The notes under the pieces are model-generated. The model was given only the letters and a program-made list of their open reading frames with translations, was not told where the DNA came from and ran no database searches. Of a stretch of DNA of 64,000 nt, positions 2,154 through 3,689 are shown piece by piece. The DNA lies in assembly GCA_049968235.1 (NCBI GenBank), contig JBMFRC010000001.1, forward strand, positions 64,001 to 128,000. Reading direction: 5' to 3'. The stretch's first letter is position 1; each line of letters opens with the position of its first letter. This DNA is from Candidatus Hydrogenedens sp. (GTDB lineage Bacteria; Hydrogenedentota; Hydrogenedentia; Hydrogenedentales; Hydrogenedentaceae). The translations under genes and the position numbers were made by a program.

Positions 2154-3689
2154 ATGTCCGTAAATAATAACAATACAGAGAATATGGGGCGTACCTTTTC
2201 TGAAAGTAAGGAAGCCTGGTATAAAAGTCCTGCATTACGATTTGTTCTGTTTTTTATAATCGTTGTTGTTAGTTTTTTAACGGCGTATCGTTATTTAATT
2301 CGGACTACATGGAACGACTTCTATCTTTTCACTTTAGCGAGGAATACATGCTGGGTTTTGAATAAGATAGGAGATAATGCGACATTAGAAGGTCTTCCAC
2401 AGAATACACCTCCAGAGGAATGCAGGGCATGGTTATCAGCCTGGGCAAGAGGTGCGAATCAACCGGCACCTGAGGATTATATTAATGTTAGCAAGGGACC
2501 TTTAACTGCATGGGAACAGTGGTCATATCGTGCTCAGAAGACGAGGAAACAAGGTGGACAAACCAAGTTAGGTCCACGAGTTGTATTTGTTTTAAAGGAA
2601 GGTTTGTTACCTAAGATAACCAATCTGGAAGAAAAAATAAGAGAACTAAATCGTAACACAAGTTTATCGGAACCCGAAAAAGCAAGTATATTGGCAAAAT
2701 ATAATACAGAGTTACAAGCATTAAGAGTGCAGTATGCAGAAGCCCAGAAAAATCCTAAAGAGAATCGGCAGATAAGTGGATATATTTTTCCATTCATTAT
2801 TATTTCGGAATGTGGTGCTATAGAAATTATGGCTATATTTTTTGCCGCGGTAATTGCATATCCGACGCTTTTTCGTAAGAAGTTATTGGGGATAGTGGTT
2901 GGAATACCATTAATGTATTTTGTTAATATTTTTCGTTTGACTTTTCTGGCAATTGTAGGGGCATTAAATTCGGGAGGGAAATGGTTTGAATTTTTACATT
3001 ACTATGTCTGGCAGGCAGTATATATTGTTTTCGTGGTAGCAGTATGGCTTGCATGGATTGAATTCGTTGTATATGCAGAAACCAGGGAAGGAATGTCTTT
3101 GCGAGACCGTATATTTCAGATATTCCAGAGGAAAACTTTGCTTCCTCTATTTCAGACTTTGCTTTTCTGCATAAAATTTATTCTTGTAGTGGTTCCGCTG
3201 GTATGTATCTGGTGGGCTTTAATTCCTGTGTATGGGTGGATACTTGTGCAGGTATCCGGCTCTATTTTGAGATTTATAATGGGTGTGCCTATTATGGCAG
3301 GTGGAATCCGACCTTCAGGTTTCTTAAATACTGCTTCTACCATTTATTTTGTTATACAGGGGTATGAATTTGAGAAGACATCGCCCATTGCTTTGTTAAT
3401 CACAAATCTACCTCCTTTTATTTCCCTGATGTTGATTACACGGATACCATGGTTAAGTCGTTTGAAGAAAATGTTATGGGGTGCTGGTATAATCATATTG
3501 GGGCATATCCTGTTTATCGTCATAGTACTTCGTTATCAGGAGGTATTAAAGGCATACAGCGAATTACCTATGGCAGTAATTCAGTTTTACCTTACGATGC
3601 CATTTATGTTATGGATAGCCATGGTATTCCGTGAGCGATTTCTAAATCGTTCTGCTAACGGTCTCTTTTCCAATAAGAAACAGGGATAA
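2154..3689 (+). CDS. exosortase/archaeosortase-family polytopic membrane protein with atypical N-terminal soluble insert and C-terminal extension
   Basis: Multi-TM protein. It has a Cys motif (IISECGAIEIMAIFFAAV) followed by an N-x-x-R motif (MYFVNIFRLTFLAIVG), in the order of the exosortase Cys/Arg/Asn catalytic signature. Unusually for the family, a ~150-aa hydrophilic coiled-coil-like segment (LEEKIRELNRNTSLSEPEKASILAKYNTELQALRVQY) sits after the first TM helix. Confidence 0.5.
   Translation: MSVNNNNTENMGRTFSESKEAWYKSPALRFVLFFIIVVVSFLTAYRYLIRTTWNDFYLFTLARNTCWVLNKIGDNATLEGLPQNTPPEECRAWLSAWARGANQPAPEDYINVSKGPLTAWEQWSYRAQKTRKQGGQTKLGPRVVFVLKEGLLPKITNLEEKIRELNRNTSLSEPEKASILAKYNTELQALRVQYAEAQKNPKENRQISGYIFPFIIISECGAIEIMAIFFAAVIAYPTLFRKKLLGIVVGIPLMYFVNIFRLTFLAIVGALNSGGKWFEFLHYYVWQAVYIVFVVAVWLAWIEFVVYAETREGMSLRDRIFQIFQRKTLLPLFQTLLFCIKFILVVVPLVCIWWALIPVYGWILVQVSGSILRFIMGVPIMAGGIRPSGFLNTASTIYFVIQGYEFEKTSPIALLITNLPPFISLMLITRIPWLSRLKKMLWGAGIIILGHILFIVIVLRYQEVLKAYSELPMAVIQFYLTMPFMLWIAMVFRERFLNRSANGLFSNKKQG

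Follow-up and report, generated by a model that had tools for sequence, protein, structure and literature searches.

Exosortases are widespread and still poorly understood, as are the roles of the small 'associated' membrane proteins found with them. According to the TIGRFAMs definition, the cognate sorting signal of the XrtH subfamily is IPTLxxWG-CTERM, and exosortase substrates are typically scattered over the genome. In the exosortase/archaeosortase family, a Cys, an Arg and a His make up the putative catalytic triad (Haft, 10.1101/2023.06.07.544157; review PMC6098224), and the tripartite-signal paradigm for exosortase substrates has been set out in the first of these papers. Experimental precedent for the importance of exosortase partners comes from the XrtF pair of Flavobacterium johnsoniae, where biofilm and surface colonisation were lost alike whether xrtF or the adjacent associated gene was deleted, and where the substrates are predicted to be unlike PEP-CTERM proteins (PMC10936215). 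Here, we describe an exosortase-like gene located at positions 2154..3689 (forward strand) of a 64-kb stretch of DNA from Candidatus Hydrogenedens sp. (contig JBMFRC010000001.1), which is referred to as the window. We consider it likely that the 511-aa product represents a Hydrogenedentota-wide, XrtH-like intramembrane cysteine endopeptidase/transpeptidase, which carries a private soluble insert and a fused obligatory partner and acts on tailed exported proteins. Our literature search returned no paper connecting exosortases with Hydrogenedentota (Hydrogenedentes).

The exosortase core and its relatives

The gene begins with an ATG, has a Shine-Dalgarno-like GAAGG around 13–17 nt 5′ of its start and encodes 511 aa plus a stop codon, exactly within the boundaries given by an earlier note on this DNA, which had read the product as an exosortase-like membrane protein. 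The whole gene is defined by the open reading frame (ORF) list, by the 89% identical ortholog of Candidatus Hydrogenedens terephthalaticus (L006; related loci carry L numbers throughout), which is the closest relative among the reference genomes, and by an AlphaFold2 (AF2) model with a mean predicted local distance difference test score (pLDDT) of 85.2 and a predicted template modelling score (pTM) of 0.81. With 63 clusters of homologs in the protein database and a further set of 182 relatives in reference genomes, the gene and its features are no product of chance. From the N- to the C-terminus, hydropathy reveals one strong transmembrane (TM) segment, a long hydrophilic stretch (residues ~73–208), three hydrophobic segments and then four more, and both sequence motifs that had originally drawn attention to the protein, SECGAIE and VNIFRL, fall within the three middle segments.

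Membership of the exosortase/archaeosortase family is supported, as judged from sequence, because the protein passes the TIGR04178 signature hidden Markov model (HMM), keeps the invariant residues of its relatives and has its catalytic columns aligned with those of XrtH. The signature model reached 55.7 bits against a cutoff of 23, pairing residues 214–302 (2793..3059, forward strand), a region of three TM helices, with model positions 1–94 of 97. In alignments of up to 64 members, with identities to ~40%, residues E219-C220-G221-A222, N258, R261, H282 and W286-Q287 are invariant, C220, R261 and H282 being present in 64 of 64 sequences. The Cys, the Asn-x-x-Arg and the downstream His occupy the same alignment columns as the catalytic positions of bona fide XrtH, as the exosortase assignment had predicted. 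The Cys-to-Arg spacing is 41 in every one of 85 loci compared (74 from Hydrogenedentota and 11 with Acidobacterial XrtH), the His lies at +60 to +66 from the Cys across the same set, and an H.Y.WQ motif is kept in all 74 Hydrogenedentota loci. The codons are found at nt 2811–2813 for Cys220, nt 2934–2936 for Arg261, which together with Asn258 forms the Asn-x-x-Arg, and nt 2997–2999 for His282, with Trp286-Gln287 beyond. According to hydropathy and the AF2 helices, the Cys and the His stand at the beginning of helices 222–235 and 276–306, respectively, and the Arg occupies the outer half of helix 240–272; the placing of Cys220 and Asn258/Arg261 in consecutive hydrophobic helices, already noticed in the first reading of the sequence, is thereby borne out. 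The sidedness given to these helices is the one predicted by the positive-inside rule.

To which subfamily does the protein belong? The best subfamily model was XrtH (TIGR04177), with 68.6 bits under a cutoff of 86, and the next ones were ArtB, XrtX and XrtF; the XrtF model (TIGR04128) gave 42.1 bits against a cutoff of 90 and the ArtA model 38.6 against 75. Relatives of the window protein scored 75.6 and 78.9 on the XrtH model, and Acidobacterial XrtH controls (Thermoanaerobaculia, Holophagales) 116–133. Database labels for the relatives vary between 'exosortase/archaeosortase family protein' in some sources and 'hypothetical protein' in others. These relatives form an uncurated, phylum-wide, XrtH-like subfamily that no curated subfamily model covers, and what is new about it is a private insert, presumably periplasmic, and, in the lineage of the window, the fusion of a partner protein. 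A known family is extended and nothing is overturned, though the subfamily would merit a curated model of its own, and the gene pair gives the uncultivated Hydrogenedentota a marker system that extends over the phylum. In this respect, the otherwise Hydrogenedentota-specific pair is also carried by metagenome-assembled genome (MAG) records titled 'uncultured Nitrospirales/Nitrospiraceae bacterium' (L009, L011, L015–L017, L029, L040, L046, L047, L050, L053, L058, L059, L062, L064, L065 and L072), titles that are probably placeholder or erroneous taxonomy.

The soluble insert and the partner module

The protein starts with a variable, Lys/Arg-containing tail (residues 1–25; 2154..2228), with pLDDT below 50 over residues 1–19, which the positive-inside rule would place in the cytoplasm. 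TM1 (residues 26–48) and an amphipathic helix 2 (residues 52–72) with a conserved W-N-D motif follow (2229..2369, as delimited by hydropathy and AF2 helices) and correspond to XrtH model positions 1–~60. The hydrophilic stretch beyond them contains one insertion of ~120 aa, placed in the loop just ahead of the catalytic Cys (residues ~81–207; 2394..2774, forward strand). The earlier note had described it as a coiled-coil-like insert of 150 aa following TM1: a soluble insert is indeed there, but its size relative to XrtH is ~120 aa, helix 2 intervenes between it and TM1, and the coiled-coil-like character is limited to its second half. The spacing between the ND motif of helix 2 and the Cys illustrates the difference, since it is 166 in the window protein and 46 in 10 of the 10 XrtH proteins scored, and it ranges from 73 to 290 across Hydrogenedentota loci. 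When the insert was deleted in silico, residues 28–180 matched positions 1–153 of the 158 in the XrtH model in one stretch.

The first part of the insert (residues ~81–150) is a small alpha/beta unit with invariant R91, A92, L117 and G140, and the second part (residues 151–208) is an antiparallel helical hairpin (helices 151–167 and 173–199) of coiled-coil-like appearance. The insert is conserved in alignments, is confidently folded in the AF2 model and is found in this family only (34 matches among 1.84 billion representative proteins). Because its matches are confined to the family, we rejected the idea that it is a domain borrowed from elsewhere. Topology would make the insert periplasmic, and a length-variable periplasmic element at the entrance to the Cys helix is a natural candidate for a specificity determinant; most likely, it selects or gates substrates or the acceptor molecule. 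As regards its variation, the ND-motif-to-Cys spacing is 73 in L060, L068 and L070, around 27 aa over XrtH, and 290 in L062, and the short-insert forms may be evolutionary intermediates. In another family member (P0037) the insert contains an internal duplication of ~50 aa with repeats of the form RA..AW.RG...P..E....PL..WE (alignment columns ~105–150), which suggests that its first half can be repeated as a unit.

At the other end of the protein, an Arg/Lys-rich linker (residues 307–325; 3072..3128; pLDDT 68–77), predicted to be cytoplasmic, leads into a C-terminal module (residues 326–511; 3129..3686, forward strand). With 186 aa, this is the extra TM module of ~180 aa that had been proposed from the sequence. 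The homolog clusters fall into two length classes, 29 of ~480–540 aa and 34 of ~300–355 aa, and the shorter homologs match only the first ~55% of the window protein, ending in the alignment at the linker. In two short-form loci (L001 and L004), the following gene begins before the exosortase gene has ended, with an overlap of 4 nt at the stop. Its product, of 190–193 aa and without Pfam match, is 38–43% identical to residues ~335–500 of the window protein, with E values of 4e-38 and 9e-43. Thus, the linker of the fused form is the place where stop and start overlap in the split relatives. Core and partner always go together in the 69 reference Hydrogenedentota loci: they are fused in 18 and separate but adjacent (mostly overlapping) in 50, and one locus is truncated. 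When the cores were placed in a rough, unbootstrapped neighbour-joining tree with XrtH as its root, the split state came out as ancestral and at least three fusions were required.

What is the fused module? Its inferred layout comprises four TM helices, an amphipathic helix and a small beta-sheet, with W353, W354, P358, Y360, N392, N418, G443, H451, P483, F484, L486 and W487 invariant. The module of the window protein did not match NF041730, the model of the exosortase H-associated membrane protein (cutoff 35 bits), at E≤10. NF041730 was the best or only match of the free-standing Hydrogenedentota partners, at 8.4–21.3 bits (E to 1.7e-4), and it was likewise the best or only match of the ~200-aa proteins directly downstream of Acidobacterial XrtH, which scored 11.6–31.6 bits with near full-length coverage. 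When the Hydrogenedentota partners were compared by hhalign with the proteins downstream of bona fide XrtH, the probability was 96.6% (E 4.9e-10, 141 columns). On these sequence comparisons, the C-terminal module is a fused XrtH-associated-like partner, since it is homologous both to the separate downstream ORFs and to the partners of bona fide XrtH. The module was also considered as a second active exosortase domain, which was rejected because it matches no exosortase HMM and lacks the Cys, Arg and His. Since the partner is joined in frame to the exosortase C-terminus, an obligate 1:1 complex is implied, and the recurrent natural fusion (at least three events on the rough tree) constitutes Rosetta-stone evidence for such an enzyme-partner complex in XrtH-type systems. 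A single-chain exosortase-partner protein would also be convenient for expression and cryo-electron microscopy.

A more tentative idea, to which we give rather less than even credence, is that the module, and by extension the whole XrtH-associated family, is a degenerate paralog with the exosortase fold that lacks the Cys, Arg and His, so that mini-exosortases would be obligate pseudo-heterodimers of an active and a dead protomer. If this were true, the window protein would have both protomers welded in one chain, with the periplasmic insert capping the sole active site. In the AF2 model, both halves have the same order of elements (a TM helix, an amphipathic helix, three beta-strands, a short helix and two long helices). 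An hhalign comparison of 76 modules with 69 insert-deleted cores gave a collinear alignment of 113 columns with a score of 21.6 (P 0.016), against 12.6–17.5 for four reversed controls, and two smaller independent profile pairs point to the same P.PWR.RL turn, predicted to be cytoplasmic. In a decoy set of 5,861 ORFs, the 15 best non-self matches of the module HMM were all exosortase cores and the five best non-self matches of the core HMM were all partners, in alignments that span the entire three-helix catalytic bundle. Against the idea, the hhalign probabilities between module and core are only 2–6%, and single decoys score 12.0 and 9.5 bits with reversed HMMs, similar to the real matches.

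The working mechanism that we propose starts from a core that is a complete 'mini-exosortase', made up of TM1, the amphipathic helix, a short beta loop and three helices bearing Cys220, Asn258/Arg261 and His282. Two additions were made to it: the soluble domain of ~120 aa, which, placed in the loop leading into the Cys helix, would face the periplasm over the active site, and the downstream-encoded partner membrane protein, whose in-frame joining to the C-terminus would yield the obligate 1:1 complex. By analogy with members of the family that have been characterised, its substrates would be proteins exported by Sec whose C-terminus combines a signature motif with a TM helix and an Arg-rich tail. 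The enzyme would cut them where the inner membrane faces outwards, after which the mature protein would be passed on for surface anchoring.

Candidate cargo and neighbouring genes

Sorting-type tails were searched for with an IPTL-like regular expression and with generic tail scans in the window and in the 85 loci. IPTLxxWG-CTERM tails were detected neither in the window nor in any of the 85 loci, and none of the proteins encoded in the window, including secreted/pseudopilin-like giants of 1633, 1973 and 2536 aa, combined a motif, a TM helix and a basic tail. The earlier note had found no such tails on the large secreted proteins and had left the substrate class open, and both statements hold. 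Nevertheless, the absence of tails in the window is uninformative, because bona fide XrtH loci are also without nearby substrates, with no tailed protein within 10 kb of the gene in any of the 11. The genes of any substrates presumably lie in other parts of the genome.

Convincing tails were seen on four proteins in ~1.1 Mb of related loci, none of them in the clade of the window, and all four are encoded near an exosortase gene. One is a 1521-aa M6-metalloprotease with Ig-like repeats, divergently adjacent to the exosortase (L019:3139–7704, reverse strand). Two others are tandem glucose/sorbosone-dehydrogenase-like beta-propellers located 2–5 kb upstream (L053:4594–6087 and 6184–7701, forward strand), and the fourth is an ortholog of this pair (L059, ORF ending at 7652, forward strand). 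All four have a signal peptide and bacterial TSP3 repeats, after which come a G[ST]DP... sequence and a Pro-rich motif and, at the end, a TM helix with a cluster of Arg/Lys. The tails of the L053 and L059 proteins share the motif DFP[LIT]LP....W, loosely like IPTLxxWG, and continue with a TM helix and RRR; a search of a 5.8-billion-protein database with the 51-aa L053 tail returned one candidate and no matches. We regard the four tailed proteins as candidate cargo, that is, as leads with no defined signal.

Apart from the partner, no universal neighbour was found among the loci compared. One association concerns a gene of the AGE family (PF07221, GlcNAc-2-epimerase-like), which tblastn places immediately after the exosortase-partner pair, in the same orientation, in ~29 Hydrogenedentota loci, with 57–73% identity between lineages. 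It is found, for instance, at L001:11580–12854 and in L013, L014, L016, L017, L021, L028, L030, L031, L034, L037, L042, L044, L046–L051, L056, L060, L070 and L071, and is absent from the window and from its clade. In one MAG (L041:9965–12955) the frame is continuous from the exosortase through the partner and a low-complexity GGQPPDSS linker to the AGE domain, giving 996 aa. Possible reasons for such arrangements are a functional connection with glycan metabolism, plain synteny and a lost stop codon. The RecG or pyruvate phosphate dikinase (PPDK) genes found upstream reflect housekeeping synteny.

In the window itself, the PPDK gene is upstream and divergent, running past the window edge, and the exosortase gene is followed by genes for an ATP-sulfurylase, a GT1-family glycosyltransferase and an FGGY sugar kinase. 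The gap of ~620 bp that separates it from the ATP-sulfurylase gene (3690–4311) contains only an 80-aa ORF (3759–4001) without Pfam match and no Rfam match, and promoter, terminator and Rfam scans around the exosortase gene were uninformative. Further away, positions 39420–63427 of the reverse strand hold a type II secretion/type IV pilus-like cluster, which encodes a 1085-aa TPR-secretin (39420–42677), a 696-aa PilM-domain protein (44180–46270), two giant ORFs of 1973 aa (47998–53919) and 2536 aa (53923–61533), the latter with a pilin-like hydrophobic N-terminus, and a 595-aa protein with an N-terminal methylation motif (61640–63427). Pseudopilin-like proteins of such a size would be unusual.

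Alternative explanations and known systems

Several observations weigh against the view that the window protein is a partner-fused XrtH-like enzyme acting on tailed proteins. No subfamily HMM reaches its own cutoff on it, and, of the exosortase models to which the earlier note had pointed, the TIGR04178 signature matches and PF09721 (Exosortase_EpsH, gathering threshold 25.7 bits) does not at E≤10; two relatives (L041 and L017) reach 19.5–20.6 bits on PF09721, under the threshold, and many homologs carry a weak precomputed match. On the substrate side, no cognate sorting signal was found in the 64-kb window or in the loci of the Hydrogenedens clade. The candidate tails match no curated sorting-signal HMM (for L053, the IPTL-CTERM model included, at E≤10), the L019 tail has no clear motif in common with those of L053 and L059, and three of the four tailed proteins are orthologs or paralogs of one another. 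Searches of solved structures by sequence and by fold gave only helical-hairpin and generic TM matches, no exosortase structure having been solved, and it is from sequence order and topology that the insert is placed over the active site. Activity experiments exist only for distant relatives, namely ArtA (PMC6098224).

How else could these data be explained? The protein might be a divergent but orthodox XrtH that works on IPTLxxWG-CTERM signals, with the insert and the fusion as neutral decorations. XrtH indeed scores highest of all subfamilies, both on the window protein and on its relatives, an XrtH-associated-like partner is present, the L053 and L059 tails (FP[LIT]LP....W, TM and RRR) loosely resemble IPTLxxWG, and IPTL-CTERM is a recognised sorting domain, as in the S-layer protein of Methylomirabilis. 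However, the window protein stays under the XrtH cutoff even when the insert is deleted (71.7 bits against 86, where Acidobacterial XrtH obtains 116–133), the L053 tails match neither the IPTL-CTERM nor any other curated sorting-signal model (E≤10), and an insert with invariant residues that is kept phylum-wide is hard to regard as a neutral decoration; we therefore find this explanation unlikely. More improbable still, in our opinion, is that no tripartite-signal sorting takes place and that the gene encodes a housekeeping envelope enzyme, dedicated for example to a single substrate or to glycan/exopolymer biogenesis, and comparable to XrtF. That explanation would suit a gene that is apparently single-copy, phylum-wide and placed within housekeeping synteny (PPDK, RecG, ATP-sulfurylase, glycosyltransferase), the AGE-family sugar epimerase that follows immediately in ~29 loci, with an apparent fusion in one of them, the scarcity of tailed proteins over ~1.1 Mb of flanking DNA, and the prediction that XrtF substrates differ from PEP-CTERM proteins (PMC10936215). 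Nevertheless, the full Cys/Arg/His protease signature is strictly conserved, bona fide XrtH loci are equally devoid of adjacent substrates, which makes nearby absence uninformative, and housekeeping synteny can be historical rather than functional.

The fused ORF might also be an assembly or frameshift artefact, or the remnant of a decayed, inactive exosortase. Split, overlapping ORFs are the majority and an error of 1 nt could join them, but 18 independent reference genomes and 29 protein clusters have the fused form, in which the linker is conserved, none of the catalytic residues varies and the full-length AF2 model is confident, so that we attach hardly any weight to this explanation; as an artefact, the fusion is effectively excluded by its recurrence in many genomes. 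The XrtH-like enzyme with a private insert and a fused partner is thus the explanation that we retain, and it can be compared with three described systems.

With ArtA and XrtA (EpsH), the window protein shares the superfamily signature and the putative Cys/Arg/His triad. These enzymes provide the mechanistic paradigm, in which the C-terminal TM helix is removed from a tripartite signal and removal is coupled to anchoring; they are larger, with 7–8 or more TM helices, and their signals are PGF-CTERM and PEP-CTERM. Accessory proteins of the XrtA type, such as EpsI, are unrelated to the partner module. The XrtF system of Bacteroidota (Fjoh_1448/Fjoh_1449) is closer in organisation, as it also pairs a mini-exosortase with an obligatory adjacent membrane partner whose loss reproduces the biofilm and colonisation defects of the enzyme deletion (PMC10936215). 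Unlike the window protein, XrtF has no reported insert or fusion, its model scores just 42.1 against 90, and the module does not match the XrtF-associated model. The nearest system is XrtH (TIGR04177). Differences from it include family scores of 68.6–78.9 against a cutoff of 86, the ~120-aa insert as against a compact architecture of ~160–190 aa, a partner family under the NF041730 cutoff (8–21 bits in relatives against 35) and the IPTLxxWG-CTERM signal, which was not found in the window or in the scanned loci. However, the order of elements is the same, the Cys-41-Arg spacing is the same and the Cys-to-His distance is 60 compared with 62 in the window protein, which, once the insert is removed, is collinear with the whole XrtH model. 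Both systems have two components, with a homologous partner of ~190 aa encoded immediately downstream of XrtH and fused to the enzyme in the lineage of the window.

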